Below, one piece after another: positions 862 to 30,862 of a stretch of DNA of 34,130 bases. Location: the sequence record SRR22947725_1903, one strand, 5' to 3'. The notes below the pieces were generated by a model that was not told the DNA's origin, made no database searches, and saw only the letters and a list, made by a program, of their open reading frames with translations. The translations under genes were made by a program, and so were the position numbers. The stretch's first letter is position 1. The number at the start of each line of letters is the position of its first letter.

Positions 862-928
862 TAAAAATATCAAATCCAAAAGAGTCAACCATTCTTATGA
901 TTACCCAAAATAGATTATAATTTAACTT
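862..928 (-). promoter_or_regulatory. YceI-gene promoter: tandem activator boxes plus -7 box
   Basis: AAGTTAA (928-922) and TGGGTAA (907-901) are 21 nt apart; -7-like TATTTTTA at 869-862 (offset 42). Confidence 0.6.
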
Positions 929-942
929 GTTTATTGTTCATC

Positions 943-1008
943 ATGGTAATTTAATATATCATTTAGGTACTCTTTAATTATAAAATCATTTATAAGTAGA
1001 TTATTTTC
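943..1008 (+). promoter_or_regulatory. DUF5916-gene promoter: tandem activator boxes plus -7-like box
   Basis: ATGGTAA (943) and TAGGTAC (964) are 21 nt apart; TTATTTTC at 1001-1008 (offset 41). Confidence 0.5.
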
Positions 1009-1047
1009 GCTTTTTATACTATTAAATCACAATATGATTTTTTTAAG

Positions 1048-3507
1048 ATGTTATGTAGAATTACAATAATTTTTTTCTTTTTTCATGTTACTCTAGCTTC
1101 TCAAGAACGCAAGAGCTTAGTAGCATCTCCTGTAAAAAACGCCCCCGTTATTGATGGAATCCTTTCAGAAGAAATCTGGAACGATTTAAATCCTTCTACA
1201 GACTTTACATTAATATGGCCTGAAACAAGTCAAGGTAAGAATTTACCTGAAGAATATGAGACTACTGCTTATGTAGGATACGATCAAGATGCTATTTATG
1301 TTGGGGCTATGCTTAACCACCCAAATCCCGACAAGATGCCCAAACAGTTTAGTCAGCGTGATGATATCTGGGATGTAAATGCGGAAACTTTTTTTGTGAC
1401 CTTCAACACATACAATGATGATTTGAACTTTTTTGGGTTTCAAATCACCAGTGCGGGTACAGTTGGTGATGTGTATTCTTCAGGACCTATAGCGTCAGAT
1501 GATTTTTTATATGATACTGTTTTTGATGCCAAAGTACACATCAGTTCAGATGGTTGGAGTGTAGAAATGGCAATCCCTTACAGTGCACTTCGATTTCCAA
1601 AAAAAGAGGTACAATTATGGGGCTTGAACTTTGGTAGAAAAATTCAAAGTTTGGATGAAACCTACGTTTGGAGTCCTGTTAATGTCAATGAGTTAAAATA
1701 TCATGAGTCTAATGGGACGCTCACTGGAATAGAGAATATCAGTCCCCCTGTACGGCTGTTTTTTTATCCCTATGTACAGTCATCCATTAACCTACAAAAA
1801 GGGGCAAGCCCTGCATCTTCTTATACAGCGGGTATGGATGTAAAATACGGGATAAGTAGCAGTTTTACATTAGACGCATCTCTGATTCCAGATTTTGGCC
1901 AAGTTGCCTTTGATAACGTAGAACTAAATCTGGGTCCATTTGAGCAACAGTTCTCTGAAAATAGAGCTTTTTTTACTGAAGGCGCTACCCTTTTTGAGAT
2001 TGCAGACGGGGATATGGGAGGTGGATCGTTTTTTTACAGTCGGAGGATTGGTGAAAAAGTATCAGTAAGAGATGATTTATTAGAGAATGATGAGCAGGTT
2101 TTTAATTTTGATGACACCCCACAACTATTAAACACGGTTAAGGTTACTGGAACAACAAGCAAAAATCTAAGCATAGGTTTCTTAAATGCCATTACTGACA
2201 AGGTTGATGCTGAAATCCAAAACTCATCTTCAAATCAAAGAAGAAAACAAACCATACAAACTTTAGTAAACTACAATGTAATTTCCTTATCTCAGCAACT
2301 GTTGAATGACTACTCATCGGTTAGTGTACTCAACACCAATAAAACTGGAAGTGATGGTTTGTATGGAAACAATATGGCATTTGTAGGAGACCTGTTTGAT
2401 GACAATAGAGATTTCAATATTAAAATGAAAGTTTTTGGTAGTAAAACACCAAAAAAAAACAGTGACAACGGATTTAGAGCGGGTATAAACCTAAGTGAGT
2501 TAAAAGGCAATTTTAGATACAACGTCAGTTGGTGGGGTGTTGATAAACATTACAAGCAGAATGAATTGGGATATTTTAATTTTATAGACCATCAAAGTTA
2601 TGCTGCAAGAATAAGTTATCAACTCCTTAATGAGTATGGCTTTCTAAGAAAGTATAGCAACTACTTAAGATTTAACGACACACATACCTTTCACTCTTTT
2701 GATAGAAAGTTTTGGGGCCTCAGATTTGGAAATGATTTCTCAACACAAAATTTAATGGTTTTTGAGGCTGATTTTGCCTACAACTCAATTACTAAAAATT
2801 TTGATGAGCCTAGAGTCTATAACCGCTTTGTTATTGAACCAGAAAATTTTCAAGTAAAACTGGGTGTGCAATCCAATAAAAACAAAGACTTTTCATATAA
2901 AATTCAATGGAATAATTTTTCTTATTTCGATGAAGATTATGATGAAAATTGGTCTCAAAAAAGACTTAATATTTCTACGCTTTATCGTTTTTCAGAACAA
3001 TTTTCACTCGCAATAAAGTCCAACCATCTTAGTTTTAAAGACGATGTTGGATATCTTAAAACAATAAATCAAGATATTTATTTTGGCAGAAGAGATATTC
3101 GATCTGTGGAAAACAACATTAACCTTAGCTACTTTTTTGATAGCAAGAAATGGATTAACTTAAGACTAAGAAACTATTGGAGTAGAGCCAATTACGATCA
3201 CACTTTGTTTCGACTAAAAGAAGGCGGAAGACGAACCGAAACAGACTTTTCAATTTTAGGTTTTGATCCAGACACAAATTTCAACATCTGGAACCTGGAC
3301 ATTAATTTTGAGTGGTGGTTTGCCCCTGGAAGTAATATGGTTTTGTTGTACCGAAACCAATTGTTCAGTAGGGACAACGCCACTGAACTGGATTATCTCA
3401 AAAGCTTAGGCAATCTTTTTGATCAAACCACGCAGCACCAATTTTCGCTACGAATAAACTACTTGATTGACTTTAATAGCCTGCGAAAGAAAAATAAATC
3501 ATCCTGA
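1048..3507 (+). CDS. DUF5916 domain protein with N-terminal CBM9-like domain (probable outer-membrane beta-barrel)
   Basis: Signal peptide; CBM9-like APVIDG.L.E..W and GWSVEMAIPYSALRF..WGLNF.R; DUF5916 hallmark LIPDFGQV..D...LNLGPFE....ENR.FF.EG..LF and FYSRRIG; amphipathic beta-strand C-terminus. Confidence 0.85.
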   Translation: MLCRITIIFFFFHVTLASQERKSLVASPVKNAPVIDGILSEEIWNDLNPSTDFTLIWPETSQGKNLPEEYETTAYVGYDQDAIYVGAMLNHPNPDKMPKQFSQRDDIWDVNAETFFVTFNTYNDDLNFFGFQITSAGTVGDVYSSGPIASDDFLYDTVFDAKVHISSDGWSVEMAIPYSALRFPKKEVQLWGLNFGRKIQSLDETYVWSPVNVNELKYHESNGTLTGIENISPPVRLFFYPYVQSSINLQKGASPASSYTAGMDVKYGISSSFTLDASLIPDFGQVAFDNVELNLGPFEQQFSENRAFFTEGATLFEIADGDMGGGSFFYSRRIGEKVSVRDDLLENDEQVFNFDDTPQLLNTVKVTGTTSKNLSIGFLNAITDKVDAEIQNSSSNQRRKQTIQTLVNYNVISLSQQLLNDYSSVSVLNTNKTGSDGLYGNNMAFVGDLFDDNRDFNIKMKVFGSKTPKKNSDNGFRAGINLSELKGNFRYNVSWWGVDKHYKQNELGYFNFIDHQSYAARISYQLLNEYGFLRKYSNYLRFNDTHTFHSFDRKFWGLRFGNDFSTQNLMVFEADFAYNSITKNFDEPRVYNRFVIEPENFQVKLGVQSNKNKDFSYKIQWNNFSYFDEDYDENWSQKRLNISTLYRFSEQFSLAIKSNHLSFKDDVGYLKTINQDIYFGRRDIRSVENNINLSYFFDSKKWINLRLRNYWSRANYDHTLFRLKEGGRRTETDFSILGFDPDTNFNIWNLDINFEWWFAPGSNMVLLYRNQLFSRDNATELDYLKSLGNLFDQTTQHQFSLRINYLIDFNSLRKKNKSS

Positions 3508-3544
3508 TTTTTTTATCTTTAGTATTACTCTCTTTCACAATAAC

Positions 3545-5340: not shown

Positions 5341-5390
5341 GTCTTTACTTTTTAATAGAGAAATACACTTCTATTTCTGCTTAAAAATTG

Positions 5391-5413: not shown

Positions 5414-6289
5414 TTGCAACTCAAGTATTCCATAACCGAAAACGAAGATCACCAGAGTTTTTTTGTTGAGCGAAAAACCATACCCTATTTCGGAGTAGAT
5501 TGGCACTATCATGAAGAATACGAATTGTTGTATCCTATCATCGGAACTGGGGTACGTATTGTTGGGGATTGCATGGAGTATTTTAATGAAAATGAATTGG
5601 TTCTTTTGGGAAGTCAGTTACCTCATTTGTTTAAAAATGAAGTGCATGATTCTTCAGAAGAGGTGGACTATATTGTTATCAAATTTAGCCCCTCTCTGAT
5701 CCATTCTTTCGTGGATCATTTACCCGAATTTTCCAATATTAAAACAATGCTTGAAAAGGCCCGAAGGGGTCTTATTTTTCAATCCATGGACAGCTATGTT
5801 CTACTGGATGACATCATTCGTATTTGTGAGTCTAGTGGTGCAAATCGTTTGATTCAATTGCTTAAAACACTGGATCGATTGTCTCGTATTGAAAACACAC
5901 GACATTTGGCATCAGAAAACTTTAATCCAGCCACAGGAAATATCGAAAAGGAGGATCGGCTTCAACGCATTATAAACTTTATATCTGAAAATTACGTTCG
6001 TGAAATCAGTCTTCAGGAGCTATCGGATTTGGCTTTTATGACAACCAATTCGTTCTGTCGGTTCTTTAAAGAACGAACGGGTAAAACAGCTTTTCAATTT
6101 ATACGAGAATATCGAATCAGTAGGGCATGTCAAATGATTATTAACAGTCGAAAATCTATTTCACAAATCTGTCATGACACGGGTTTTAACTCGTTTTCGA
6201 GTTTCAACCGAGTTTTTAAGGCTGTAAAGGGAATATCAGCCAGTGAATATAAGAGCAAATATCAAAGACTGAACAATATTTCCTCTTAG
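5414..6289 (+). CDS. AraC family transcriptional regulator (cupin sensor + double HTH), CgrA-like carrageenan regulator candidate
   Basis: WHYHEEYEL cupin; C-terminal SLQELS..AFMT..SFCRFFK..TG and ICHDTGFNSFSSFNRVFK..KG.S..EY. TTG at 5414 preferred over 5327, which overlaps the sulfatase. Stop overlaps the convergent permease stop by 4 nt. Confidence 0.9.
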   Translation: MQLKYSITENEDHQSFFVERKTIPYFGVDWHYHEEYELLYPIIGTGVRIVGDCMEYFNENELVLLGSQLPHLFKNEVHDSSEEVDYIVIKFSPSLIHSFVDHLPEFSNIKTMLEKARRGLIFQSMDSYVLLDDIIRICESSGANRLIQLLKTLDRLSRIENTRHLASENFNPATGNIEKEDRLQRIINFISENYVREISLQELSDLAFMTTNSFCRFFKERTGKTAFQFIREYRISRACQMIINSRKSISQICHDTGFNSFSSFNRVFKAVKGISASEYKSKYQRLNNISS

Positions 6290-7329
6290 CTCAAACTATT
6301 TGAGTAACCAAGAATCACAGAAGCCAAGATGAGAACCACCAAGCCAACGAGCAATACGTTAAACGGTTTTTTTGCCCCTTTCCACTCACCCGATCTATAT
6401 GCCCAAATGTTACTTACAATCAGTGATAACCCTAACAACATGGGCCAACCGACAATATTACCTAGGTTATTTTCTGAAGCACCGTTCATGAGTGCGGCAC
6501 CTTGGCCATATAGGCCCAATGCTGCAAACCAACACAAACCAGCAATAATAGACCACATATAGGCCTTTTTAGATCCTGCTACCGAAAAGTTGGACCAGCT
6601 ATTATTTTTGACAATTAGTACAAGGCTATACAAAGCATTCATAGCATAGGCCCCGATAAATACAATCAGCCAAGCAATCAAACTTGCATTGCGACCATTG
6701 ATTCCATAATTCTCCGCAATTAGTGTAACATCGTCGTTCACGTTTGTATGACCAACTGCCAACAGCGATGATAATGCACCACAAACAACTGCGATAATAA
6801 TGCCTTTTATAATATTACCGCCCGATAGAGATGATGTGCCTTGCATCTTGTCGCGATCTATACCTGCTTTTGCCGTCAATACCACACCAATAATGGTGAT
6901 ACCAAGCCCTGCTATTACATAAGGAAATTGAGGTAAGCTGGTTGCATTTGGGTTTTGAAGCAGTGGAATAAGTGCACCCAGCGTTCCAGCTATACCCATT
7001 ACAATACCCATAGTTAAAGACAAACCAATATAAGGCACACTAACACCAAACATAATACCGCCAATTCCCCAAAGAAAGCCAAACAATATGGCAATAGATG
7101 CAGCACGTTGAGCAACTGGATCTGCAAAAACGTCTTCAATTACCGGCATATAACCAGAAACGGATAAGCAAGTCCACAACAAAGGAAAAAGTACCATAGC
7201 AATAGACACATGAACCAACCACCAGTTTTCCCATTTCAGTGGTGACATATATTTCATACCAACACCAAATGATCCCTGAAAAAAACTAGCAACAATAATC
7301 AATAAAAAAGGTAATACAATAGATTCCAT
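6286..7329 (-). CDS. RhaT-family (DMT superfamily) sugar/proton symporter, probable 3,6-anhydro-D-galactose permease
   Basis: About 10 hydrophobic segments; QGSF...MK....KWENWW, FGFLWGIGGI.FG....IGLSL, GEWKGA. Last gene of the anhydrogalactose operon. Confidence 0.85.
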   Translation of the reverse strand: MESIVLPFLLIIVASFFQGSFGVGMKYMSPLKWENWWLVHVSIAMVLFPLLWTCLSVSGYMPVIEDVFADPVAQRAASIAILFGFLWGIGGIMFGVSVPYIGLSLTMGIVMGIAGTLGALIPLLQNPNATSLPQFPYVIAGLGITIIGVVLTAKAGIDRDKMQGTSSLSGGNIIKGIIIAVVCGALSSLLAVGHTNVNDDVTLIAENYGINGRNASLIAWLIVFIGAYAMNALYSLVLIVKNNSWSNFSVAGSKKAYMWSIIAGLCWFAALGLYGQGAALMNGASENNLGNIVGWPMLLGLSLIVSNIWAYRSGEWKGAKKPFNVLLVGLVVLILASVILGYSNSLS

Positions 7330-7341
7330 GTCTGTATAATT

Positions 7342-8106
7342 TTAGTTTTTAAGTTGTTTTGTTATTTCTTTATAAGCATTAAGGATTATACCAACGTCAA
7401 CTGAATAGGATATGTACTGAACACCGAGGTCACGCCATTTGTGCGCATCAGATGGACTTTCGCAAAAAGTACCTATAATTTTGTTGTTGGCTTTGGCAAG
7501 TGCAACCGCTTTTAGCATTTTTGAAACAACAAGTGGGTGGTGCACTTCTCCAGGAACACCACATGATTGTGACAAATCATAAGGTCCTAGAAAAATAACG
7601 TCAATCCCATTAATGCTGATGATTTCAGCTAAGTTTTCAATGCCTGCCAATCCTTCGATGTGCACTATGGTTAGTGTGTTTGATTCAGCTGAAGAAAAAT
7701 AGGTTTGTTTCTCTGTATTCGTATAATCCGCAGCTCTTACATACCTGCACATACCCCGTTCACCTTGTGGGTGAAAATAACAGGACTTGACTACTTCTTG
7801 GGCATCTTCTTTTGTACTCACTTGGGGTACCTGAATGGAATGTACACCTACATCAAGTACTCGCAATATATTTGCAGGGTTATTTTCGGTTACACGAACA
7901 ACAACCTCTAGGTTTTGGGCTTTAGCCGCACGACTGATATTTTGAACGCTTTCTACACTAAGTGGCCCGTGCTCCATATCTAAAATAACAAAGTCAAAGT
8001 TTGCCAGCGCGGCAATTTCCACTACGCTTGGGTCTTGAAGTTTACAAAAGGGGCCATATACAGTCTGACCGTCCAACAATTTCTGTTTGAGCTTGTTGAT
8101 TTCCAT
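7342..8106 (-). CDS. HpcH/HpaI family class II pyruvate aldolase (probable 2-keto-3-deoxy-galactonate aldolase)
   Basis: FDFVILDMEHG, VRV, LDVG..SI.VPQV, P.G.RG, IE...G..NL.EI....GID..FLGPYDLS.S.G.PG; start directly follows the dehydrogenase stop. Confidence 0.88.
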   Translation of the reverse strand: MEINKLKQKLLDGQTVYGPFCKLQDPSVVEIAALANFDFVILDMEHGPLSVESVQNISRAAKAQNLEVVVRVTENNPANILRVLDVGVHSIQVPQVSTKEDAQEVVKSCYFHPQGERGMCRYVRAADYTNTEKQTYFSSAESNTLTIVHIEGLAGIENLAEIISINGIDVIFLGPYDLSQSCGVPGEVHHPLVVSKMLKAVALAKANNKIIGTFCESPSDAHKWRDLGVQYISYSVDVGIILNAYKEITKQLKN

Positions 8107-8107
8107 C

Positions 8108-9544
8108 TTAAAGTGCTACTGAAACTCTCTTTTTAACTAAATAATCTTCTAAAGCTAAGTGAGAGCAATCATGCCCGATACCACTGTTTTTGATGCCACC
8201 ATGAGGCAAGTATATGGCATATTTTACCCCATTGACTTGAACCTCACCAAATGCGAGCTGCTCTGAAAAACGATGGATGCGATCGCTGTTGTTGGTGAAA
8301 ATATAAGAAGCCAACCCAAACTCAGTATCGTTCGCAAGCATTAATACTTCTTCGTCTGTTTCAAATGACATAAATGGGGCGATAGGACCAAAGGTTTCCT
8401 CCCTAAACAGGCGCATTTCTGTGGTCATTCCTGAAATTACGGTGGGCATCATCCAATTTCCATCTTTCATTCCTTCTGGAATTTCTCCTCCCGCTAACAG
8501 AACGCCTCCTTTTTCTTTGGCATCATTGATCAAATCAAACATGCGATCTCTGTCATTTCTTGTGACCATAGGTCCCATGTCAGGTTTTTGGTCTATACCA
8601 AAACCAAGCTTAAGACTTTTAACGCGTTCAACATATTTTTCTAAAAACGAATTATAAAAGCTCTTGTGCACAAAAAATCTGTTGGCAGCAACGCAAATCT
8701 GACCACTATTACCAAATTTTATTCCGATTGCCAAATCGAGTGCTTTGTCAATATCTGCATCTTCAAATACAATAAATGGCGCATTACCGCCAAGTTCCAT
8801 ACTGAGTTTTTTGATAGATGTAGCACTGTCTGCGATCACACGTTGACCAGTAGCCGTCGACCCTATCATGGTCAAGACAGAGGGTATTTTACTTTTGCTA
8901 AGCGTAGTTGCAACTTCGCTAGTAGGCCCAGACAAAATATTGACCACACCAGCTGGAAAATCAATATCATGTATGATTTCACCTAAAATATAAGCTGAAA
9001 GTGGCGACAATGCAGAGGGTTTAATGATAATTGAGCATCCAGAAGCCAAGGCGGGGCCTAGTTTAAAACCCACATTGAGGAGCGGAAAATTCCAAGCCAA
9101 ATATGCGACTGCTACCCCAGCGGGTTGTTGAATCATTTTGTGGGTATGGGTATTTTCGTAATCTGGGATTTGCTCATCACGTAAATTTTTCATGGCGTTA
9201 GGATACCACTCTAAAGCATTAACTACCGCTTCAATGTCCTCCCAAGCAGCGTCATAGGTTTTGCCCATTTCATAAACAATGGCGGATCTAAGCAAGTGTT
9301 CGTTTTCAAGAACGGCTTCTCTGAGCTTTAACATCCATTGGGTACGTTCTGACAAAGAGCATTTTGACCAAAACTCGAATCCTTTTTGGGCAGCTTCTAG
9401 TGCCTTTTCAGCATCCGCTTTCCCTGCTTCTGCAATTTGAGCTATGGGTTTGCCGTCAGCTGGGCAAATAACATCCGACCTGGTTTTGGATACACTATCT
9501 ACCAACGCCCCGCCGATATACATTTTATGATAACCGAAATCCAT
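8108..9544 (-). CDS. dauA: NAD(P)-dependent aldehyde dehydrogenase, 3,6-anhydro-D-galactose dehydrogenase-like
   Basis: ALDH motifs AWNFP, IKPS, GST.TG, MELGGNAP (catalytic Glu), GQICVA (catalytic Cys), EETFGP. Sequence and context resemble flavobacterial DauA (recall). Confidence 0.8.
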   Translation of the reverse strand: MDFGYHKMYIGGALVDSVSKTRSDVICPADGKPIAQIAEAGKADAEKALEAAQKGFEFWSKCSLSERTQWMLKLREAVLENEHLLRSAIVYEMGKTYDAAWEDIEAVVNALEWYPNAMKNLRDEQIPDYENTHTHKMIQQPAGVAVAYLAWNFPLLNVGFKLGPALASGCSIIIKPSALSPLSAYILGEIIHDIDFPAGVVNILSGPTSEVATTLSKSKIPSVLTMIGSTATGQRVIADSATSIKKLSMELGGNAPFIVFEDADIDKALDLAIGIKFGNSGQICVAANRFFVHKSFYNSFLEKYVERVKSLKLGFGIDQKPDMGPMVTRNDRDRMFDLINDAKEKGGVLLAGGEIPEGMKDGNWMMPTVISGMTTEMRLFREETFGPIAPFMSFETDEEVLMLANDTEFGLASYIFTNNSDRIHRFSEQLAFGEVQVNGVKYAIYLPHGGIKNSGIGHDCSHLALEDYLVKKRVSVAL

Positions 9545-9550
9545 ATTTTT

Positions 9551-10746: not shown

Positions 10747-10812
10747 CAAACTAAAAATTGTTTAGGTTGTTTATTCATTATTGTTTAGCATATATTGGTC
10801 ACTAATTATCTT
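10747..10812 (-). promoter_or_regulatory. dauB operon promoter: tandem activator boxes plus -7 box
   Basis: AAGATAA (10812-10806) and ATGCTAA (10791-10785) are 21 nt apart; TTAGTTTG at 10754-10747 (offset 41). Confidence 0.65.
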
Positions 10813-12016: not shown

Positions 12017-12538
12017 TTAAAGTTTAACGAGTTTATAATTGTCTATCGAGACTTCAGTTCCTTCTGCAAATCGAAATAATTGAAGTGTCACTTCAGATTT
12101 ATTTTGTGGTACAGTAAAATCCAAACTACGAGAAGCCCATGTACCATTATTAGGTTCTGCTATATTTTCCTTAGCTAGTTGTTGACTTTCGTCCCCTTTT
12201 CCACAAACTACACTCAATACATGTGTGCGCTTCCATGCAGGACCATTATTAACGGCTTTCGTTTCTAATGTCCAGCGGTAATGATCACCCGGAGTTACAT
12301 CTAATGATTTAATTAAAAAAACCTTTGCTTGAGTTGTAGAAGTAGCTACTTTATTGTCTTCTTCTTGCCCAACCATCCACACCGATTTATTCCAACCTTG
12401 AAATTGAAGAGTATTCCTTTTGGTAATTTCTGTACCTACTGTCTGGTCTTCAAAATCAAGTTCGTATACCAATTCTTGAGCAGTCCCAAAAAATGATAAA
12501 ACCATAATAACAAGGACCGAAAGCTGATAAAACTTCAT
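12017..12538 (-). CDS. Secreted single-domain CBM-like protein
   Basis: ATG at 12538 gives a signal peptide (MKFYQL...GTA); DFE...QGW...TPGD...GTW...SIDNYKL pattern of a galactose-binding-like fold. Confidence 0.75.
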   Translation of the reverse strand: MKFYQLSVLVIMVLSFFGTAQELVYELDFEDQTVGTEITKRNTLQFQGWNKSVWMVGQEEDNKVATSTTQAKVFLIKSLDVTPGDHYRWTLETKAVNNGPAWKRTHVLSVVCGKGDESQQLAKENIAEPNNGTWASRSLDFTVPQNKSEVTLQLFRFAEGTEVSIDNYKLVKL

Positions 12539-12566: not shown

Positions 12567-12633
12567 CAAACCAACAACTAATATTGTATCCTCAGCTTGC
12601 AGCAATTATCATCTTAATATCATTTTTTAGCAT
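12567..12633 (-). promoter_or_regulatory. Promoter of the CBM-like gene pair: tandem activator boxes plus degenerate -7 box
   Basis: ATGCTAA (12633-12627) and ATGATAA (12612-12606) are 21 nt apart, with an intermediate ATGATAT; TTGGTTTG at 12574-12567 (offset 42). Confidence 0.6.
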
Positions 12634-12670
12634 ACTCAGTTCCTATACATTACCAAGATTAATAATTGCT

Positions 12671-22750: not shown

Positions 22751-24322
22751 CTATTTTACAATTTTTAACTGTTGATTTAAAATACTAGAAAGTTTTTGTT
22801 TGACAGTCTTATGTTCAGCACTACTTGATAGATTATACCATTCGTGAGGGTCTTTTTTGTGATCATAAAGCTCTTCATTACCATTCGCATATTTAATATA
22901 TCTATATCTTTTTCCTCTTACAGATAGGTGTTGTCGCTCAGGGAATTGAGACCTCCAGCTTGCAATTACTGTTAATGCCGCATCAGGACCATCCCACGAT
23001 TTGGTTTTAGGATTTTTTAAAAATGGCTCTAAACTGAATCCATCTAACTGGTTTTTTTCGTTTAGTATAAGGTTTGAAACATTGTTTCCTGTAAGGGTTA
23101 GTATTGTGGGATAAATATCTAGTAATGAAACCGGATGGTTTACTTTATTTCCTGCATTTGCGCTGTATTTTGGTGCTTTTATAATTAGTGGTACGCGTGT
23201 CGTTTCTTCCCACAGATTGTACTTCCATAGATATTTTTTTTCCCCTAAATTGTATCCGTGATCGCTAAAGAGAATAACAATTGTATTGTTGGCAAACTTC
23301 GAATTTTCTAATGCTTCAAGCAGTTCCCCAACACGATCATCAGCAAAAGCAACGCTTGCCAAATAGGCCTGTGTGTATTTTTTAAGTGCAAGCTCCTTTG
23401 ATTCATATCCTTCAACTAAACCTATATATGCCTTTCTACCTCTTGACATTCCACCTTTCTTAAGGTTGTTGTTTTCTAAAAAAGTATCCGCATAATCTTC
23501 CTCTTTTATTTGTGACGTTTGAATCTTTTTTAATGGAAACATATCAAAGTATTTTTGCGGAACCACTAAGGGGGTGTGGGGTCTGTGAAGACCAATGGCC
23601 ATGAAGAAGGGATCGCTGGCGTTCTCTTTTTCAAGCTTTTCCAATTGTTTTTTGGTCCAAATAGTACTTTTCTCATCCGTCATTAAATCTCTATCTGTAT
23701 CATTTACATATCGAAATGGTTTACCTCCCCAGCTACCATTATACCATCCTTTTGCTCCAGGTGCATCATCAGAAGATGAAACTTCTGGGATGTCTGCCAA
23801 AGAGAAAAATGTTGCATCAAGAGCTCCTAATTCACGCATACCTTTTGGAGATGAGGGATGCGGAACTGATTTTTTACCATTAAATGCTATGGGGCCATAA
23901 TCTTTTTTAATACCCATAAGGCTCCAAGCACCTTTTTTTGGGCTATGGAACACCTTTCCAGATTGCATACTAACATATCCGTTTGCAGTGAAAAACTCAG
24001 GAAGGGTGGTTGCTTGCGCCAACAAATCATTTTTCAACCAATTGGAGAAACCCCACATCCGAGAGCGCAATGGAGAAATGCCTGTCATAAAGCTTGCTCT
24101 GGATGGTTGGCATACAGGAACATTGGCATGTGCGTTTGTAAACAAAATACCTTCTTTAGCAAGCCTATCAATGTTAGGGGTTTTTGCCTGTGGATGCCCA
24201 TCCAAAACACCCACATAATCATTGAGGTCATCCAAAACAATCATTAACACATTGGGTTTTTCTTGCCCAGTTAAGTTTGAGATATTAAAAATAAATAGAA
24301 AAAGTAATGCGTATTTAATCAT
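22751..24322 (-). CDS. S1 sulfatase, S1_7/S1_81-like
   Basis: ATG at 24322 gives a signal peptide and an 8-nt overlap with the upstream stop; LDDLNDY, CQPSRAS..TG, GLHRPHTP, SDHGY.LGEK. Confidence 0.92.
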   Translation of the reverse strand: MIKYALLFLFIFNISNLTGQEKPNVLMIVLDDLNDYVGVLDGHPQAKTPNIDRLAKEGILFTNAHANVPVCQPSRASFMTGISPLRSRMWGFSNWLKNDLLAQATTLPEFFTANGYVSMQSGKVFHSPKKGAWSLMGIKKDYGPIAFNGKKSVPHPSSPKGMRELGALDATFFSLADIPEVSSSDDAPGAKGWYNGSWGGKPFRYVNDTDRDLMTDEKSTIWTKKQLEKLEKENASDPFFMAIGLHRPHTPLVVPQKYFDMFPLKKIQTSQIKEEDYADTFLENNNLKKGGMSRGRKAYIGLVEGYESKELALKKYTQAYLASVAFADDRVGELLEALENSKFANNTIVILFSDHGYNLGEKKYLWKYNLWEETTRVPLIIKAPKYSANAGNKVNHPVSLLDIYPTILTLTGNNVSNLILNEKNQLDGFSLEPFLKNPKTKSWDGPDAALTVIASWRSQFPERQHLSVRGKRYRYIKYANGNEELYDHKKDPHEWYNLSSSAEHKTVKQKLSSILNQQLKIVK

Positions 24323-25727
24323 GAGATTTACTTTGGATTCGTAACCACCATTTATCATTTCCAAGAGTTGGAAACACTCTGTCTTTAAGTTGTACATTCC
24401 ACTTGTCCCACTCTTTTTGAATTTCTTGCACCTTTTTAGAATTAGAACCCTTGATGTTTTCTTTTTCTGAAACGTCTTTCTTTAAGTTGTAAAATTCTGT
24501 CTCTGCGTTTTTCTTTACTTTAAGTAACTTATAATCGGCATTAATGGCAGCCATCGCATTTTGCTCCCACTTGCGCCAAAACAAATATTCATGTGGCGCT
24601 CCTTTCTTTTTACCTGTCAAATATGGAATTATATTAACACCGTCTAGTGGTTTTTTTGGATTTGTTTTAATGTCTAAAATATCAACTATTGACGCCATAA
24701 TGTCTAGTGACGAAACGGACTCTTCATAACTTGTATTTGCAGGAATTACGCCTTTCCATTGCATGGCAAATGGCACTCTTAAACCTCCTTCGTAAACACT
24801 TCCTTTAGTTCCTCTAAGCGGTGTATTTTGAGAAGCATTGTTATGTGCACCTCCGTTGTCAGATAAAAAAACTATTAGCGTATTTTCTTCGATTCCATTA
24901 TCCTTAAGGGTTCGAAGTACATTGCCGACACCATCATCTACAGCACTAACCATAGCTGCATAAGTCTTTCTTTTTTTATCCTCGATGTCTGGGAATCTTG
25001 ATAGATATTTTTCAGTCGCATGCATAGGTGTATGTGGAGCGTTATAGGCGAGAAATAAGAAAAAGGACTGGTTATTTTCAGCTTGCTTGTTAATAAAGCG
25101 AAGGCCTGCCTCACTGAGTTCATCTGTTAAGTAGTCGGTTTTATAATCCTCAAATTCAAGTGTTTTATGATTTTCCCGTAACTTGGTCTTATACCAAGCC
25201 CATTTGGATTTAACATTTTCAAGATTTTCAATAGTCAATTGATTCATAAAGTAATTATGCCCTCCAGATAAAAAACCATAGAAATAATCAAAGCCTCTTT
25301 TAAGAGGATGGAAATTTGGATGTGTGCCCAAATGCCATTTTCCCACAATAGCACTTTTGTAACCCTCTTTGTGTAAAACCTCAGCTATTGTTTTTTCATC
25401 AAGTGGAAGACCAGCAATATCATTTGTCGGATCAATAGTAGGGTTTGTTGTAAAGCCAAATCTGTCTTGATATCTCCCAGTGATAAAACCAGCTCGGCTA
25501 GGTCCACAAACTGGAAATGACACATAACCATTAACTATATGGGCACCGTTGTAAGCAATGGAATCAATATTTGGTGTAGGGATGTCTTTACAGCCATTAA
25601 ACCCAACATCTGCATAACCCATGTCATCGGTCATGATAACAATCAGGTTGGGTTTGTCTTTATCTTGCTGAGCCGAAAGCAACAAACCCGACAACATAAT
25701 TAATGTTAAAAAAAATTTAGACTCCAT
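24315..25727 (-). CDS. S1 sulfatase, S1_19-like (candidate carrageenan galactose-4-sulfatase)
   Basis: TDDMGYADVGFNG...IPTP.ID, CGPSRAGFITGRYQ.RFGF..NP, GKWHLG, LAYNAPH.P, SDNGG, YEGG.RVP. Closely resembles S1_19 carrageenan sulfatases (recall). Confidence 0.92.
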   Translation of the reverse strand: MESKFFLTLIMLSGLLLSAQQDKDKPNLIVIMTDDMGYADVGFNGCKDIPTPNIDSIAYNGAHIVNGYVSFPVCGPSRAGFITGRYQDRFGFTTNPTIDPTNDIAGLPLDEKTIAEVLHKEGYKSAIVGKWHLGTHPNFHPLKRGFDYFYGFLSGGHNYFMNQLTIENLENVKSKWAWYKTKLRENHKTLEFEDYKTDYLTDELSEAGLRFINKQAENNQSFFLFLAYNAPHTPMHATEKYLSRFPDIEDKKRKTYAAMVSAVDDGVGNVLRTLKDNGIEENTLIVFLSDNGGAHNNASQNTPLRGTKGSVYEGGLRVPFAMQWKGVIPANTSYEESVSSLDIMASIVDILDIKTNPKKPLDGVNIIPYLTGKKKGAPHEYLFWRKWEQNAMAAINADYKLLKVKKNAETEFYNLKKDVSEKENIKGSNSKKVQEIQKEWDKWNVQLKDRVFPTLGNDKWWLRIQSKSHD

Positions 25728-25729
25728 GT

Positions 25730-27328
25730 TTATTTTAATATTTGATTAAGTTGGTTTCGCAACAATTTTAGCTTTTTTCTATAATTTTTTTCATTGACCA
25801 CATTGTACCATTCGTATGGATCTTTTTTGTTGCAATACAACTCTTCTTTACCATTTGAATATCTAATGTATCTGTAATCAATTGTGCGCAGGGTGTAATT
25901 CTGCTTTTCTTTTGGCACCTGATTACCATAATTTCCTATAATCGTCAATGCATAATCTGGACCGACCCAATTTTTCGTATTAGGATTCTCTAAAAATGCG
26001 CGCAAGGAATACCCGCCCAAATTTCCACCGGAATTTGATTTTTTGGTGTTACCTGATAGGAAGCAATAGTCAATTAATGTTGGAAAAATATCAATTAGTG
26101 ACACTGGATGGTTTACCACACCTTTCACTTCGCTATTAGGAATGCGGAGAATGTACGGAATACGTGTACTTTCTTCCCAAGGAGAATTCTTAAATAAATG
26201 ATTTTTCTCGCCTAAATGCCAACCATGATCACTCGTCAAAATAACAATGGTATTGTTATTCAAACCTGTTGACTCTAGAGAATCTAATATTTTACCAACC
26301 TGATCATCAACAAATGTGATACATGCTAAGTAAGCTTGCAGGAAATATTTAAGAGCCAATTCTCTGTCTCCCCCATAAGAATCTACCAATGTTTTTAACA
26401 GCAATGGCCCTTTAAGATTTCCTCCTCTGTATCCATAAACTGTTTTTACATCACCCTCAAGTGATAAATCTCCTTGAAAATTTTCTTTCCAAAAGGTGTC
26501 CAACTCATCGCCGTCGAGCCAATTATCAAGCTCAATTTCATCGATTGGATACATATCAAAATATTCGTCGGGGGCATGAAGCGGTGTATGAGGCCTCACA
26601 AAGCCTATACCCATAAAAAAAGGCTTTGCTGTTTTGTTATTTGCAATTTTTTTGAACTTTTCAATGGCCCATTGAGCATGTAATTCTCCTTGAAGTAGGT
26701 CTCTGTCATCGTTGCCTTGAAATCTGTACGGCTTCTTGTCCCACCCATAAACCAAACCGATTTCTCCATATTTACCACTAGATACACCTGCCGCAGAAAT
26801 GCGTCCGTATGAACCGTCTATGGTTCCAATTTGACGGTAGGGATCTGGCACCGTTGGCAATACGCCAATTTTTTCACCATCAAAGTAAAAAGGACCATAA
26901 TTGTGTTTGGGATTATTGCCCCATTCTTGCCAATGTTGTTGAGGTGCCCCATGAGTTAACTTGCCAGTACCAAGCGTTTGATAGCCGTTTTCAGCAAAAT
27001 ATTCCATCATGGTTTTGTTGTGCTTAAGCACAGGTTGTTTTGACATAGGTGTCCAGCCAAAATCTCCAGAATCGTGTGGATAAACTCCTGTAAACAAACT
27101 GTTTCTAGAAGGCTGACAAACAGGTACGTTGGTATGTGCATTAGAAAACTGTACGCCTGATGCTGCCAAGCGATCCATATTGGGTGTTTTAACATCAGGA
27201 TGTCCACCAAAAGCACCAACATAATCGTTAAGATCATCTGCCATAATCAACAATACATTTGGCTGTTCTTGTGATGTGCCTAAAAAAGACAAAGAGATGA
27301 GAGAAAAAATTAAAATATGTCTTATCAT
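25730..27328 (-). CDS. S1 sulfatase, S1_7/S1_81-like
   Basis: Signal peptide; ADDLNDY, CQPSRNSLFTG, GFVRPHTP, TSDHGWHLGEK. Confidence 0.92.
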   Translation of the reverse strand: MIRHILIFSLISLSFLGTSQEQPNVLLIMADDLNDYVGAFGGHPDVKTPNMDRLAASGVQFSNAHTNVPVCQPSRNSLFTGVYPHDSGDFGWTPMSKQPVLKHNKTMMEYFAENGYQTLGTGKLTHGAPQQHWQEWGNNPKHNYGPFYFDGEKIGVLPTVPDPYRQIGTIDGSYGRISAAGVSSGKYGEIGLVYGWDKKPYRFQGNDDRDLLQGELHAQWAIEKFKKIANNKTAKPFFMGIGFVRPHTPLHAPDEYFDMYPIDEIELDNWLDGDELDTFWKENFQGDLSLEGDVKTVYGYRGGNLKGPLLLKTLVDSYGGDRELALKYFLQAYLACITFVDDQVGKILDSLESTGLNNNTIVILTSDHGWHLGEKNHLFKNSPWEESTRIPYILRIPNSEVKGVVNHPVSLIDIFPTLIDYCFLSGNTKKSNSGGNLGGYSLRAFLENPNTKNWVGPDYALTIIGNYGNQVPKEKQNYTLRTIDYRYIRYSNGKEELYCNKKDPYEWYNVVNEKNYRKKLKLLRNQLNQILK

Positions 27329-27362: not shown

Positions 27363-27429
27363 CAAAATAAATAAAACAATGGAATAGTAAGGTGCTAAAA
27401 ATTACCCATGATTTTGTGCTGATTAACAT
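27363..27429 (-). promoter_or_regulatory. Promoter of the three-sulfatase operon: tandem activator boxes plus -7 box
   Basis: ATGTTAA (27429-27423) and TGGGTAA (27408-27402) are 21 nt apart; TTATTTTG at 27370-27363 (offset 42). Confidence 0.65.
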
Positions 27430-27442: not shown

Positions 27443-29302
27443 TTATTTTTGTTTGATATAATCTATTTCAACCAAGTCATTTTTCTTGCCTCGAAACGAA
27501 ATTTTTAGCTTTGTCGTACCGCTCAAACTCATGTTTTTGTTCAGAGGAATCAAAACTTCTTCAAAAGATGAATTACCCGAATATTCTGCACTACCCAAGT
27601 CACCATGATCATTTGCAACAAAAATTTTCAAGTTGGCGTTTGATTTCATTTTAATGGCAATGATTTTTTGATGATTTGCCTCTCTAATTTGTAATCCTTC
27701 TTTATAAATAGTGCCCTTTTTGCTATCAAGTTTAAAGTCCAGATAGCCCAAACTACCCGCCAAATTGGAAGAAATATCTGTCGATCTCCAACCCTCGGTT
27801 TGCCAACCACCACAATCAAATTCAAAATAAAGAATCCCATCATTTCGGTTTCTGTTGTTGGCTATTTCCCATCTGTCAGACAAACCATCTCCATCTGAAT
27901 CCACGCGATATTTTTCGTATTCTGGATTAACTCCTTCACCCCATTTTTTTCCATCGCCATTTGCTTTAAGATTTGCAATAGGCTCAGCTTCTGAACCCAT
28001 GTCACCAATTGCTAACCATTGGTCTAGCAACTTACGATGCCTTTCAAGTTCTATACTAAATGTAGGATTTCCAACCAAATTATAAATCATTGTAGGGTCT
28101 TTATTTACATTATATAGTTCTTCTGCAGGGCGTTCACCAAAATAAATTTCTTTATGGACTTTAGAAAGTCTTCCTGAATTGTACAAATGATGAAGGTTTT
28201 TAGTGAAGTTTTTCGAATCCCTGTATTGCGGTTGCAAAAAAATACGATCTAATTTATAATTTCGAACGTATCTGTAATTTTCAGTTCTAACCGTTCTTAC
28301 TCTGTCAATCGTATGATCTAATCGATCTTTATGTGCAGCTACAAATGATCGTGGTGTAAAGTTTTTTGAAAATAAATTTTTCCCTTCGTACCAATTTGGT
28401 ACATCAACTCCTGCCCAAGATAATGTAGTGGCAGAAAGGTCTAGCATGTTAACCAAATCATTGCGAACTTTACCGCTTGGGACATATTTATTTGGCCCCA
28501 TAACTACAAATGGCACATGCAATCCTCCTTCAGTGAGCATTTGTTTATGCCTTGGAAGGTTGTTGGCACCGTGGTCTGAAAAATAAACCACAATGGTGTT
28601 TTTGTAAAGCCCCGTGTCTTTTAGTTGCTGTATAATCTTCCCTATAATATTGTCATCTACTCGAATTGCTTCATAGTGTTGGGCTACTACCTCTTTAAAG
28701 ATTTTATTGTTTGGATAATCCGCGGGAACAGCAACATTATTCGGATTAACTTTAACTTCTTTATTTATGTTTTCAGTATTGTTTTTGCCTCCCCTAAGTT
28801 GAATTTGACCAAAGAACGGCTGTTTATTCACTAGCTCAGAGAAATCGGTTCTTTTTTTGAGCTTGTGATTATAGGTTTTACCCTGATTCCAAGCAAAATT
28901 ATAATCTGCTTTACCAAAGTTAAAAGTGGTGTACCCTTGCTCAGAAAGCAACTCAGGTAATAGTTTGTAGTTTTGAGGAAGTTGAATACGCGTTTTAGGG
29001 GTTCTAGAAGACCGGTGTTGATGTGCGCCAAAACGAATTGCTGACTGCCCAATAATCATTGCAGATCTTGTAGCAGAACAAACAGGTGCCGGAACATACG
29101 CCCTGTTAAAACGTACCCCTGCTTGCGCTATCGCGTCAATATTTGGAGTTGCATCAATGTTAACATCATTGCCGTAACATCCCATCCATGGAGAGGTATC
29201 CTCTGCATAAATCCAAAGTATGTTGGGTTTTTGAGCCTGTAAAAGTGATGTTTGGACTGTGAGAACAATGATAAAAAAATAAACAAATAAAACCCTATTC
29301 AT
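27443..29302 (-). CDS. S1 sulfatase (S1_8-like) with C-terminal DxDxDG motif and accessory beta-sandwich domain
   Basis: KPNILWIYAED.SP, CSATRSA, FSDHG, K..L.EGGL.VP, EELY...DP; extra ~155 aa after the sulfatase domain. Start 29302 (8-nt overlap) or 29308. Confidence 0.9.
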   Translation of the reverse strand: MNRVLFVYFFIIVLTVQTSLLQAQKPNILWIYAEDTSPWMGCYGNDVNIDATPNIDAIAQAGVRFNRAYVPAPVCSATRSAMIIGQSAIRFGAHQHRSSRTPKTRIQLPQNYKLLPELLSEQGYTTFNFGKADYNFAWNQGKTYNHKLKKRTDFSELVNKQPFFGQIQLRGGKNNTENINKEVKVNPNNVAVPADYPNNKIFKEVVAQHYEAIRVDDNIIGKIIQQLKDTGLYKNTIVVYFSDHGANNLPRHKQMLTEGGLHVPFVVMGPNKYVPSGKVRNDLVNMLDLSATTLSWAGVDVPNWYEGKNLFSKNFTPRSFVAAHKDRLDHTIDRVRTVRTENYRYVRNYKLDRIFLQPQYRDSKNFTKNLHHLYNSGRLSKVHKEIYFGERPAEELYNVNKDPTMIYNLVGNPTFSIELERHRKLLDQWLAIGDMGSEAEPIANLKANGDGKKWGEGVNPEYEKYRVDSDGDGLSDRWEIANNRNRNDGILYFEFDCGGWQTEGWRSTDISSNLAGSLGYLDFKLDSKKGTIYKEGLQIREANHQKIIAIKMKSNANLKIFVANDHGDLGSAEYSGNSSFEEVLIPLNKNMSLSGTTKLKISFRGKKNDLVEIDYIKQK

Positions 29303-30698
29303 TGACATTTAAATTATCGGTTCGAAATGATGAAACAGGGAGGCCATTCCTCCCAAAAAGCGTTGGTAATACACAGTTTTTGAATCCATAACGCACCGCT
29401 TTTGGATGGGGCACTTTTTCTGAAAAAACCCTGATTTTTTGATCTTTATGATAGGGACTCGTCATAACTGCGTTTGCTGGATAAAACACCATATCAGTTC
29501 CTGCTATTTCAAAATTTTCTGAGGGATCTACATTCTTGTTTAAGTGTACACGGTTTGAAAAAGTTAAAATAATCTCTTGTTCTTCAATAAAGTAATTTGT
29601 TAATGTGGGTGACTTGAAATCATATCCACTAATACCATAATCTTTAGCTAGTGCTACGTATGACAGACGCTTGCCAACTTCCCTTTTTTTTGATGGATGG
29701 ATTTGGGTGCAATCGCCAACATCTAACGTAACTACCATCTCTGCATTTTGTAAGCTTTGGCTACTCTTGAGTTGTGCTTCTCTTAAAAAAGCAGAATTAT
29801 TTTTTCCATAATTGAAAGGAGCAATCTGGACATAATAAAAAGGGAAATCTCCAATATTCCATTGTTTTCGCCATGAAGTAACCATAGCATTGACTATTTT
29901 TTCATATTCATTGGCATTAGGACGATTTGCTTCTCCTTGATACCACAAAACTCCTTTTATGCCATATCCAATAAGTGGATGTATCATGGCGTTGTATAAC
30001 ACACTTGGCGTTTGTTGCTTCATTTTGGCCATTTTTTCAGCTGATCCTAAACCTAAATCGTTTAATGTGCTAGAGTCTGTCCATGCTTCTGCTGTAGAAG
30101 CACCCCAGGCTGTCACGATTATCCCAATTGGAACATCTAATACCTTCTCAAGTTGTTGGGCAAAGAAGTATCCAACTGCGCTAAAGGATCCCGAAGTTGA
30201 AGGTGCTGCTTTTTCCCATCTACCATTGACATTGTCTATCGGCTTTAAACTTGCATTTTGTTTTACAGTAAAAAAACGGATTCTGTCGTTTTTTGAATTC
30301 ACAATTGCATCCAACCCACCTTCAATGAAATTACCATCCAATCCTCCTTTAAGAGGTAATTGCATATTAGATTGCCCCGAGATTACCCACACCTCACCAA
30401 TCAATACATCATCAATTGTTACTGTAGATGACCCCTTGATTGTAATGGTGTGTGGTCCACCCGCATTAGGAGTTGTTAATTGCATCTTCCATTTTCCATT
30501 TTTTGATGTGGTTGTTTTGGCTGTCTCTCTCCATGAGCTGACAACATTAATTTTGGTATCAACATTATCTGTGCCCCATAAATAGATGTCTTTTTGTTGC
30601 TGTAAAACCATACCATCCCCAAAGACAGTACCCACTGTGGTTTGGGCTTTAGTAACCAAGCTGAAACAAATAAGCAGAAGAAGTATTTTGACATCCAT
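29295..30698 (-). CDS. Sialate O-acetylesterase family (SASA/DUF303, SGNH) carbohydrate esterase
   Basis: Signal peptide; FGDGMVLQ, GEVW..SGQSNM, FSAVGYFF, LYNAMI.P, WYQGE.N, D...IHP..K..VG.RL, GLPVSSFRTD. Confidence 0.92.
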   Translation of the reverse strand: MDVKILLLLICFSLVTKAQTTVGTVFGDGMVLQQQKDIYLWGTDNVDTKINVVSSWRETAKTTTSKNGKWKMQLTTPNAGGPHTITIKGSSTVTIDDVLIGEVWVISGQSNMQLPLKGGLDGNFIEGGLDAIVNSKNDRIRFFTVKQNASLKPIDNVNGRWEKAAPSTSGSFSAVGYFFAQQLEKVLDVPIGIIVTAWGASTAEAWTDSSTLNDLGLGSAEKMAKMKQQTPSVLYNAMIHPLIGYGIKGVLWYQGEANRPNANEYEKIVNAMVTSWRKQWNIGDFPFYYVQIAPFNYGKNNSAFLREAQLKSSQSLQNAEMVVTLDVGDCTQIHPSKKREVGKRLSYVALAKDYGISGYDFKSPTLTNYFIEEQEIILTFSNRVHLNKNVDPSENFEIAGTDMVFYPANAVMTSPYHKDQKIRVFSEKVPHPKAVRYGFKNCVLPTLFGRNGLPVSSFRTDNLNVNE

Positions 30699-30725
30699 AT
30701 TTTTCTCAAATCACTTTTGTATAGT

Positions 30726-30792
30726 TAAAAATAAACCATAAATCAGTTGTTGTCATAATAGCAATTACCTTTTTGTCAATACAAATTATCAA
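30726..30792 (-). promoter_or_regulatory. Esterase-sulfatase operon promoter: tandem activator boxes plus -7 box
   Basis: TTGATAA (30792-30786) and AAGGTAA (30771-30765) are 21 nt apart; TATTTTTA at 30733-30726 (offset 42). Confidence 0.65.
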
Positions 30793-30795
30793 AAA

Positions 30796-30862
30796 ATGAT
30801 AATTATCAACAGTTTTAAGATAATATTACACCATTTAAACTTTCAATAGTTTTTTAGATTTG
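30796..30862 (+). promoter_or_regulatory. S1_15 sulfatase promoter: tandem activator boxes plus consensus -7 box
   Basis: ATGATAA (30796) and AAGATAA (30817) are 21 nt apart; perfect TAnnTTTG (TAGATTTG) at 30855-30862 (offset 42). Confidence 0.7.

Follow-up and report, generated by a model that had tools for sequence, protein, structure and literature searches.

A tandem direct-repeat operator at a fixed distance from the -7 box in carrageenan-type loci of Flavobacteriaceae, and its likely AraC-family regulator

This study was concerned with the promoters of a 34,130-nucleotide (nt) stretch of DNA from sequence record SRR22947725_1903, referred to as the window, which a Pfam scan of its 25 open reading frames (ORFs) identifies as a flavobacterial locus for sulfated 3,6-anhydro-galactan of the carrageenan type. 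Eight of its intergenic regions carry a tandem direct repeat, WNGNTAA-N14-WNGNTAA (the operator), at a fixed distance upstream of a box resembling TAnnTTTG, the -7 box of Bacteroidota sigma-A promoters. Tandem box and -7 box form one promoter module, locked in orientation and conserved among the carrageenan-type loci of many genera. Judging from sequence comparison, the operator is most likely the docking site of the AraC-family protein encoded at 5414-6289. The best explanation of each region, and one that we consider quite probable, is an activator-dependent sigma-A promoter switched by this protein.

The tandem operator and its promoter geometry

The original prediction listed eight tandem sites in the window, and all eight were recovered, seven of them exact and one with a single mismatch. 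The promoters (P1 to P8) and one additional tandem are as follows.

P1, 862..928 (-): exact site 901-928, distal box AAGTTAA (928..922), proximal box TGGGTAA (907..901), -7-like box TATTTTTA (869..862); precedes a YceI-like gene, 775..227
P2, 943..1009 (+): site 943-970, distal box ATGGTAA (943-949), proximal box TAGGTAC with one mismatch (964-970), -7-like box TATTTTCG (1002-1009); precedes a DUF5916 gene, 1048-3507
P3, 3545..3610 (+): exact site 3545-3572, distal box TCGATAA, proximal box TGGCTAA (3566-3572), -7-like box TACTTTAG (3603-3610); precedes a sulfatase gene, 3685-5340
P4, 10747..10812 (-): exact site 10785-10812, distal box AAGATAA (10812..10806), proximal box ATGCTAA (10791..10785), -7-like box TTAGTTTG (10754..10747); precedes the operon of dauB-like, dauA-like, HpcH aldolase and RhaT genes, 10720..6286
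P5, 12567..12633 (-): exact site 12606-12633, distal box ATGCTAA, proximal box ATGATAA (12612..12606), -7-like box TTGGTTTG (12574..12567); precedes an ORF of no Pfam family, 12538..12017, and a protein with a type IX secretion system (T9SS) tail, 12005..11193
P6, 27363..27429 (-): exact site 27402-27429, distal box ATGTTAA, proximal box TGGGTAA (27408..27402), -7-like box TTATTTTG (27370..27363); precedes a sulfatase cluster, 27328..22751
P7, 30726..30792 (-): exact site 30765-30792, distal box TTGATAA, proximal box AAGGTAA (30771..30765), -7-like box TATTTTTA (30733..30726); precedes a SASA-type esterase, 30698..29295, and a sulfatase, 29308..27443
P8, 30796..30862 (+): exact site 30796-30823, distal box ATGATAA, proximal box AAGATAA (30817-30823), consensus -7 box TAGATTTG (30855-30862); precedes a sulfatase gene, 30883-32409
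Extra tandem, 12650..12677 (-): AAAGTAA-N14-TTGGTAA, one mismatch, 44 nt upstream of P5 (the site at 12633)

Dinucleotide shuffles of the whole window gave an expectation of 0.64 exact sites (maximum 3; none of 100 shuffles reached 7), compared with the seven observed. All seven lie in the intergenic DNA, which totals 1,514 nt, and segment-wise shuffles of this DNA averaged 0.064 sites, never exceeding 2 in 5,000 shuffles. When one mismatch was allowed, the enrichment in the window was only modest, with 28 sites against 16 expected. The spacing of same-strand G.TAA pairs in the window's intergenic DNA is a test independent of the degenerate pattern used in the original prediction, and it gave seven pairs at spacing 21 and at most two at any other spacing from 5 to 60. 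In addition, all eight sites are oriented towards the downstream gene, including the three out of three that lie in one-directional gaps. Outside the boxes the eight promoters share 34.8% pairwise identity, compared with 32.3% expected from composition, and thus they are not copies of one cassette. The two-part signal is real. The gaps upstream of the AraC gene (5341-5413) and galK (22676-22750), from which the motif had been reported absent, contain no site at one mismatch or fewer. A sigma-70 promoter scan was uninformative, as expected for Bacteroidota (35 hits against 39.6 expected).

For comparison with related loci, dauB-like proteins were aligned, and 80 loci (L001-L080) with 10-kb flanks were combined with the window into a set of 81 sequences (1.52 Mb, 9.6% intergenic). 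The motif recurs upstream of dauB in other genera: the exact pattern lies within 260 nt upstream of the gene in 37 of the 80 loci, and many of the others miss it by one letter. Seonamhaeicola, Tamlana, Hyunsoonleella, Flavivirga, Flavicella, Mariniflexile, Polaribacter, Lutibacter, Tenacibaculum and Postechiella are among the genera with an exact site. Over the 81 sequences, 120 co-oriented intergenic sites were found against 2.2 expected from 10 shuffles, while anti-oriented sites numbered 8 (2.0 expected) and coding sites 40 (44.4 expected), so that the coding sites match chance. Intergenic G.TAA pairs in L011-L080 number 179 at spacing 21 and 2-30 at other spacings. The composite pattern of operator and -7 box gave 172 intergenic hits, compared with 0-1 per shuffle in 10 shuffles, and occurs in 72 of the 81 sequences. 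Neither an AraC homologue nor a site was found in the two Chloroflexota loci (L058, L062). The closest public relatives of the window are uncultured Flavobacteriaceae genomes. One relative, L001, has an identical dauB (100%) and 89-94% identity in three of the four intergenic regions compared. Across the two to eight close relatives of each promoter region the tandem boxes and the -7 box are kept, while spacers and flanks drift. No Rfam family matched in the window, and therefore a known RNA element does not explain this conservation.

The distance between operator and -7 box is fixed. At all eight window sites a match of at least 5/6 to TAnnTTTG starts 58-59 nt after the distal box, and the proximal box begins 37-38 nt before the -7 box. 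The original prediction gave 40-42 nt from the proximal box to TTT, counted from the first T of the run; in the TAnnTTTG register the distance is 41-42 nt, and the geometry is the same. In the wider set, 97 of 111 non-identical co-oriented sites have a match of at least 5/6 at offset 58 (16 sites) or 59 (81 sites), and no other offset from 28 to 124 exceeds 6 sites. The -7 box stands at this offset in 33 of 35 dauB sites and in 64 of 76 sites at other genes. When 34 non-identical dauB sites were aligned on the tandem box alone, T at +59 and A at +60 were each found in 30/34 and T at +63 and +64 in 34/34, so that the -7 box surfaced without having been selected for. An A-tract at +42..+44, seen in the dauB set, carried no more than 0.19 bit in the full set and was dropped.

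In Bacteroidota sigma-A promoters the -7 box is also preceded, at a distance of about 19-21 nt, by a -33 element, TTG. This element is not conserved in the present sites: 14 of 97 have a TTG beginning in columns 33-41, where column information is at most 0.2 bit. The missing element fits a promoter that needs an activator. It is also a better argument for activator dependence than the deviant -7 boxes to which the original prediction had appealed. That seven of the eight window boxes deviate was borne out, one of eight matching TAnnTTTG at 6/6. The meaning attached to the deviations stands on weaker ground, with only 17 of the 111 sites in the wider set, all of them operator sites, matching 6/6. 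The mapped sigma-A box of Flavobacterium psychrophilum lies at -12..-5, as described in PMC9723704. If the -7 box here occupies the same positions relative to the predicted start sites, the half-sites would start at about -71 and -50, and the proximal one would span about -50 to -34. The predicted starts, 5-8 nt past each -7 box, would lie near 857, 1014, 3615, 10742, 12562, 27358, 30721 and 30867.

The single promoters differ in how they are kept among the relatives. The P1 boxes and the downstream TTTTGGATTT are retained in L001 and L003, and the gene behind them differs; the module precedes a sulfatase at L001:19644 and an aldose 1-epimerase, 540 nt away, at L003:19811. A different gene behind a conserved module indicates rearrangement breakpoints just after the promoter, and YceI may be a member of the regulon by accident. 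P2 is the weakest of the eight, and its boxes are identical in L001 and L003. The conserved block of P3 in L001, L003, L007 and L008 runs exactly from the distal box to just past the -7 box, with diverging flanks, and is absent from L005; transcription from P3 possibly reads through into the AraC gene. The P4 footprint is seen in eight close relatives. Its distal box directly adjoins the stop codon of an ORF of the Dabb family (stress-responsive A/B barrel; 10806-10815), which has no operator of its own in the window; an operator is present at Dabb in L023 and L059. P6 possibly also serves galK-galT-SSF. P7 and P8 stand back to back, 3 nt apart. The extra tandem is kept in six relatives within L001-L008, and its reverse complement overlaps the -7-like TTACTTTG (12668-12675, +), 24 nt before the GH2 start (ATG 12699); its role in the system is uncertain.

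Two further observations concern dauB itself. About 111 to 63 nt upstream of dauB in Tenacibaculum agarivorans (L049, locus position 9992) there are three in-phase boxes, TAGATAA-N14-AGGGTAA-N14-AAGATAA, which suggests, on the basis of the letters, an extra half-site. Algibacter mikhailovii (L048, L068) and Flavivirga rizhaonensis (L030, L042) each have two dauB copies; in F. rizhaonensis some 15 kb separates the two, and no composite site accompanies the second (L042).

The AraC protein and its link to the operator

The regulator of the window is the following gene, the sole DNA-binding regulator that Pfam identifies among the 25 ORFs.

AraC/XylS-family regulator, 5414..6289 (+): 291 amino acids (aa), TTG start at 5414; N-terminal cupin-like domain and C-terminal DNA-binding domain with two helix-turn-helix (HTH) motifs

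It is a canonical member of the AraC/XylS family. Pfam reports HTH_18 (2.3e-20) and HTH_AraC (2.3e-9), and 12 PDB sequences match at E<=1e-3, including GadX, MarA, AdpA, AraC (2k9s) and XylR. The best PDB sequence match of the DNA-binding domain is a protein of a hybrid two-component system (HTCS; 12aw_A, 1e-15). No Pfam domain for an HTCS sensor, histidine kinase or receiver was found in the 291-aa protein, and thus it is not an HTCS. The AlphaFold2 model has a mean predicted local distance difference test score (pLDDT) of 81.4 and a beta-rich N-domain, and its seven C-terminal helices superpose on AdpA-DNA and MarA-DNA complexes with template modelling (TM) scores of 0.88 and 0.71. Foldseek searches with the model returned full-length ToxT (1.5e-11), Rns and CsvR, the AraC N-domain (2arc, 3.7e-5), the RhaR regulatory domain (5u93) and plain cupins. 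The model thereby predicts an N-terminal cupin-type domain for ligand binding and dimerisation. A homodimer prediction scored 0.34 against a mark of 0.42 and argues neither for nor against dimerisation. W30-H31-x-H33...E37 and P70-H71 of the N-domain are invariant in 18 sequences across both sub-lineages described below; this set resembles a cupin metal-binding site, and sugar binding by the sensor may be metal-mediated, in contrast to that of E. coli AraC.

Full-length homologues of the protein were found in 41 of the 81 sequences. They fall into two types, W (window-like) and Z (Arenibacter, Echinicola, Tenacibaculum, Seonamhaeicola and others), which never occur together within one fetched locus. 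Carrageenan use in marine Bacteroidetes has been described as requiring a dispersed regulon and the AraC-type regulator CgrA (Ficko-Blean et al. 2017). CgrA is a positive regulator by genetics and part of a Bacteroidetes core system, according to the same work (PMC5698469), whose supplementary file 4 lists Echinicola pacifica with a CGRA ortholog at the edge of its polysaccharide utilization locus (PUL). By homology, that single listing would extend to type Z as a whole, which we take as CgrA-type. The window AraC is 35-41% identical to the CgrA-type proteins over their full length in an 18-sequence alignment, and the DNA-binding domain is about 38-46% identical in a wider set of homologues. 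The two types share an HTH1 (MTTNSFCRFFK) with little or no variation and differ in HTH2. From this comparison the window protein is best taken as a probable sister lineage of CgrA, not as a proven ortholog.

The sites are linked to this protein indirectly, by co-occurrence, adjacency and covariation. A composite site is carried by 40 of the 41 sequences with a full-length homologue, and in 11 of the 41 an exact site lies 8-208 nt from the AraC gene. The sub-site GnTAA is kept in both types, with G at +2 in W-type loci, and a second sub-site changes with the AraC subtype. TG at +11/+12 was found in 24/32 W-type sites (13/15 outside the window clade) compared with 2/40 Z-type sites, and AAT at +7..+9 in 5/32 W-type compared with 22/40 Z-type sites. 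The same contrast is seen within the genus Algibacter (L023 and L025).

Two position matrices were also tried. One, built from 29 dauB-upstream sites of other genera, had core columns too strict for the window lineage and was not used for counts. The other, from 15 W-type sites outside the window clade, ranked the seven exact window sites 1-7 and the eighth 17th of 68,186 positions; it is not independent evidence because its training sites were chosen with the same pattern.

Several observations weigh against this assignment. TG at +11/+12 is present in only 3 of the 8 window sites, and the window sites are more degenerate than the family consensus, with five of eight scoring above 8 bits on the matrix from other genera. 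The covariation counts are not phylogenetically independent. Sites are still carried by 32 of the 40 sequences that have no AraC homologue inside the 10-kb flanks, and in these the regulator is either further away or a different one; a homologue cut short at the end of the fetched DNA is present in three of them (L004, L064, L075). The sequence set itself consists of the DNA around dauB genes rather than of whole genomes. In the window, neither the GH2-GH16 operon (GH2, T9SS protein, GH16) nor the AraC gene has a co-oriented operator. GH2 is preceded by an operator in L029 and L043.

If the locus AraC switches these promoters, a half-site in the window lineage would consist of the shared GnTAA followed, about 10 bp or one helical turn further downstream, by a second sub-site T-G-(A), an arrangement that would suit one AraC-type domain with its two HTH motifs. 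The proximal half-site would reach about -38 to -34, the place of the ordinary -33 TTG that is lacking here. Two protomers of the CgrA-like protein would fill both half-sites on sensing a carrageenan breakdown product, and the bound protein would activate rather than repress, recruiting RNA polymerase as E. coli AraC does at araI1-araI2. In this way the eight promoters would cover, and AraC binding would turn on, about 18 of the 25 window genes. By analogy with Zobellia galactanivorans, in which deletion of cgrA impairs growth on carrageenan as described in PMC5698469, 3,6-anhydro-D-galactose or one of its derivatives may serve as the effector.

A broader reading is possible, if somewhat short of probable. 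GnTAA-N16-GnTAA, locked 58-59 nt upstream of the -7 box, could be a "carrageenan box", a cis-code for 3,6-anhydro-D-galactan catabolism common to Flavobacteriaceae and at least two genera of Cytophagales. Two diverged CgrA-like sub-lineages, each co-evolved with its own operator, would read it. The invariant HTH1 would read GnTAA, and the divergent HTH2 would read T-G-A (+11..+13) or A-A-T (+7..+9). The presence of both regulator-operator pairs within Algibacter would then mean that regulator and operators are exchanged together as a module.

Alternative explanations of the module

The alternative that deserves most attention, although we regard it as unlikely, is that the operator is real and read by another protein, such as a LytTR-type response regulator, an HTCS or a global regulator, while the AraC has other targets. 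LytTR-type regulators use direct repeats about 21 bp apart, and genes for a histidine kinase and a LytTR regulator lie at the edge of L073, one of the AraC-less loci. The AraC-less site-bearing sequences noted above speak for this alternative, as do an Rrf2 gene divergent from dauB in L028 and the HTCS genes in L043, L061 and L068, the only sequences with HTCS-sized proteins (1,326-1,370 aa). However, no regulator family recurs. Of seven fully Pfam-scanned site-bearing loci (103 proteins), five have no regulator and two have different ones. The AraC is the only regulator in the window, the motif variant tracks the AraC subtype, and 11 homologues lie less than 210 nt from a site. Somewhat less likely again is that the AraC binds these sites and mainly represses, or acts dually by looping like E. 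coli AraC without arabinose, on promoters that are intrinsically active. Seven of the eight window -7 boxes are one mismatch from consensus and so fairly good, and the tandem upstream of P5 and the back-to-back P7 and P8 could permit higher-order complexes. The operator nevertheless lies wholly upstream of the -7 box (about -71..-36) with the -33 element missing, which is a layout for activation and not for occlusion. Moreover, deletion of cgrA in Z. galactanivorans is described as lowering growth on carrageenan instead of de-repressing it (PMC5698469).

PULs in Bacteroidota are often under the control of extracytoplasmic function (ECF) sigma factors, and the strictly fixed distance to the -7 box is what would be seen with core promoter elements. 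Both points favour a reading in which no regulator is involved and RNA polymerase itself contacts the boxes as parts of an extended promoter, using an UP-like element or a sigma factor of an alternative or ECF type. We hold this to be very improbable, since the boxes at about -71 and -50 are far outside sigma contacts, the module is restricted to carrageenan-type genes by the counts and the classing given in the next section, and no sigma or anti-sigma gene was seen among the window ORFs by Pfam. The downstream element is, moreover, the sigma-A TAnnTTTG and not an ECF -10 element (PMC9723704). Chance similarity in AT-rich intergenic DNA, or a duplicated promoter cassette, has next to no probability left. 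In favour of chance, the pattern is degenerate and was fitted by eye, and its enrichment at one mismatch is only modest. Chance and duplication are nevertheless refuted by the exact counts against shuffles in the window and in the 81 sequences, the unique peak at spacing 21, the fixed -7 offset and the non-box identity close to composition (0.348 against 0.323).

Target genes, locus content and relation to known systems

The genes downstream of the 120 co-oriented sites were named by blastp against the window proteins (88 sites) or typed by Pfam (the other 32).

Named by blastp: dauB 39, sulfatases 17, homologues of ORF 12017-12538 12, KDPG aldolase 5, T9SS-tail proteins 4, Dabb 3, RhaT 3, GH2 2, AraC 1, esterase 1, YceI 1
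Typed by Pfam: SusC-like 11, GH16 6, KDGal kinase 3, no family 8, and single cases of a GntP permease, an aldose epimerase, a GH42-like protein and a 2Fe-2S protein

These targets match what PMC5698469 describes for Z. galactanivorans, both the RNA-seq regulon and the core system, and by sequence they are read as a carrageenan regulon. In seven Pfam-annotated loci, among genes preceded by a gap of 60 nt or more, a composite site stands before 15 of 29 PUL-type genes and 0 of 18 unrelated genes, the classing being our own. ORF 12017-12538 (-) encodes 173 aa and is followed by the T9SS-sorted protein 12005..11193. The original prediction had called it a carbohydrate-binding module ORF with an earlier start (TTG 12577), which is corrected here to ATG 12538, and it matched no Pfam family even at E<=1. 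Its homologues at other loci (12 sites) are the second most frequent target ORF, and by homology it is classed as a conserved regulon member of no known family. In Tenacibaculum, proteins of 511-518 aa with no Pfam family lie directly behind an operator (L046:2733-4286, L047:2299-3855, L049:4962-6515, L051:6813-8357, L071:6402-7937); such a protein could be an unrecognised carrageenan-active enzyme.

The remaining gene content of the window, from the Pfam scan, is as follows.

Catabolic genes: dauB-like MR_MLE cycloisomerase (9551-10720), dauA-like aldehyde dehydrogenase, HpcH aldolase, RhaT-type permease, KDPG aldolase, PfkB kinase
Degradative genes: GH2, GH16, six sulfatases, SASA esterase
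Galactose genes: galK, galT, SSF symporter

The eight promoters would leave out Dabb, the GH2-GH16 operon, the AraC gene with its short upstream gap, and the pair of KDPG aldolase and PfkB kinase, which is transcribed from a promoter outside the window. No GH127 (dagA) was found in the window. The 34-kb window also has no SusC/SusD pair, though SusC-like proteins account for 11 of the 32 Pfam-typed targets elsewhere; the DUF5916 protein (1048-3507, 819 aa, operator 943+) may be the outer-membrane component of this lineage's system. The HpcH/HpaI-type aldolase (7342-8106) lies inside the dauB-dauA operon, as it does in three other genera (L027:12725-13489, L055:12624-13388, L073:12619-13383), and a KDPG-type aldolase is also present in the window (32402-33073). 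Together these could represent a second route of keto-deoxy sugar acid cleavage. The listed coordinates of the sulfatase ORFs 22751-24397 and 24315-25727 share 83 nt (24315-24397), and the downstream one of the pair probably starts at a later codon.

The layout resembles several described systems. The original prediction took direct repeats of about 21 bp beside the -35/-33 element as an AraC-type arrangement, and both E. coli AraC and Bacteroides HTCS, as described in PMC11983282 and PMC3878776, agree with this. E. coli AraC binds 17-bp half-sites as direct repeats 4 bp apart (21-bp period), the promoter-proximal one partly overlapping -35 (PMC11983282). AraC at araI1-araI2 (PBAD) and RhaS at rhaI1-rhaI2 occupy paired half-sites of about 17 bp; inside each, two sub-boxes stand roughly one helical turn from each other, an arrangement also proposed for the window. 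Both proteins are activators with a sugar-sensing cupin domain (fold hits 2arc and 5u93). In contrast, they belong to another phylum and show about 15-23% identity in structural alignments, and the window has the -33/-7 grammar of Bacteroidota sigma-A and a GnTAA...TG recognition sequence. Neither a distal O2-type looping site nor a CRP site was identified in the window.

CgrA of Z. galactanivorans (ZGAL_3159), about 290 aa long, likewise belongs to the AraC family and is encoded inside a 3,6-anhydro-D-galactose/carrageenan locus, according to PMC5698469. The CgrA-type proteins of Arenibacter, Echinicola and Tenacibaculum align with the window AraC over the full length and adjoin the same kind of operator. 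They differ in that the window AraC forms a separate sub-lineage with another HTH2 and another second operator sub-site. For Z. galactanivorans, one operator is predicted in the 120 nt that separate ZGAL_3159 from ZGAL_3158 and another ahead of cgtA. Bacteroides HTCS also control polysaccharide loci of Bacteroidota through AraC-type DNA-binding domains, and the motifs predicted for them are direct repeats whose centres lie on average 21 bp apart (Ravcheev et al. 2013; PMC3878776). Unlike the window AraC, a small cytoplasmic one-component protein with a cupin sensor, they are membrane proteins with kinase and receiver, and they belong to gut Bacteroides rather than marine Flavobacteriaceae and have another motif sequence. 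The operator of AusR, the alginate regulator of Z. galactanivorans, was found by cross-genome promoter comparison and also has a fixed relation to the TAnnTTTG -7 box (PMC7641319). However, AusR is a GntR-family repressor whose paired sites overlap the promoter, whereas the window has direct repeats upstream of the -7 box in an activator-type layout. No published operator for CgrA or other carrageenan AraC regulators was found in the literature searched, with subscription journals mostly outside its scope, and the main text of PMC5698469 contains neither "operator" nor "binding motif" (0 occurrences each).

The mechanism proposed here is the textbook AraC layout. It is a fairly conventional gene switch that extends rather than overturns known biology. 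A defined operator with fixed geometry makes regulon membership predictable, including that of distant and unknown genes, in cultured and uncultured genomes. It also makes two ideas testable: that activation by CgrA-type proteins makes up for the absent -33 contact of Bacteroidota sigma-A, and that the two regulator sub-lineages are orthogonal. In addition, the operator offers a compact sugar-inducible promoter for marine flavobacteria, which are poor in genetic tools. If the box is indeed a cis-code, the regulon would be definable in uncultured genomes, and that of the window would include members not so far linked to carrageenan, namely the DUF5916 protein of outer-membrane type, the small conserved protein of no family and the YceI-like gene. 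The arrangement would then be the first defined class-II-like activation layout for a Bacteroidota -33/-7 promoter.

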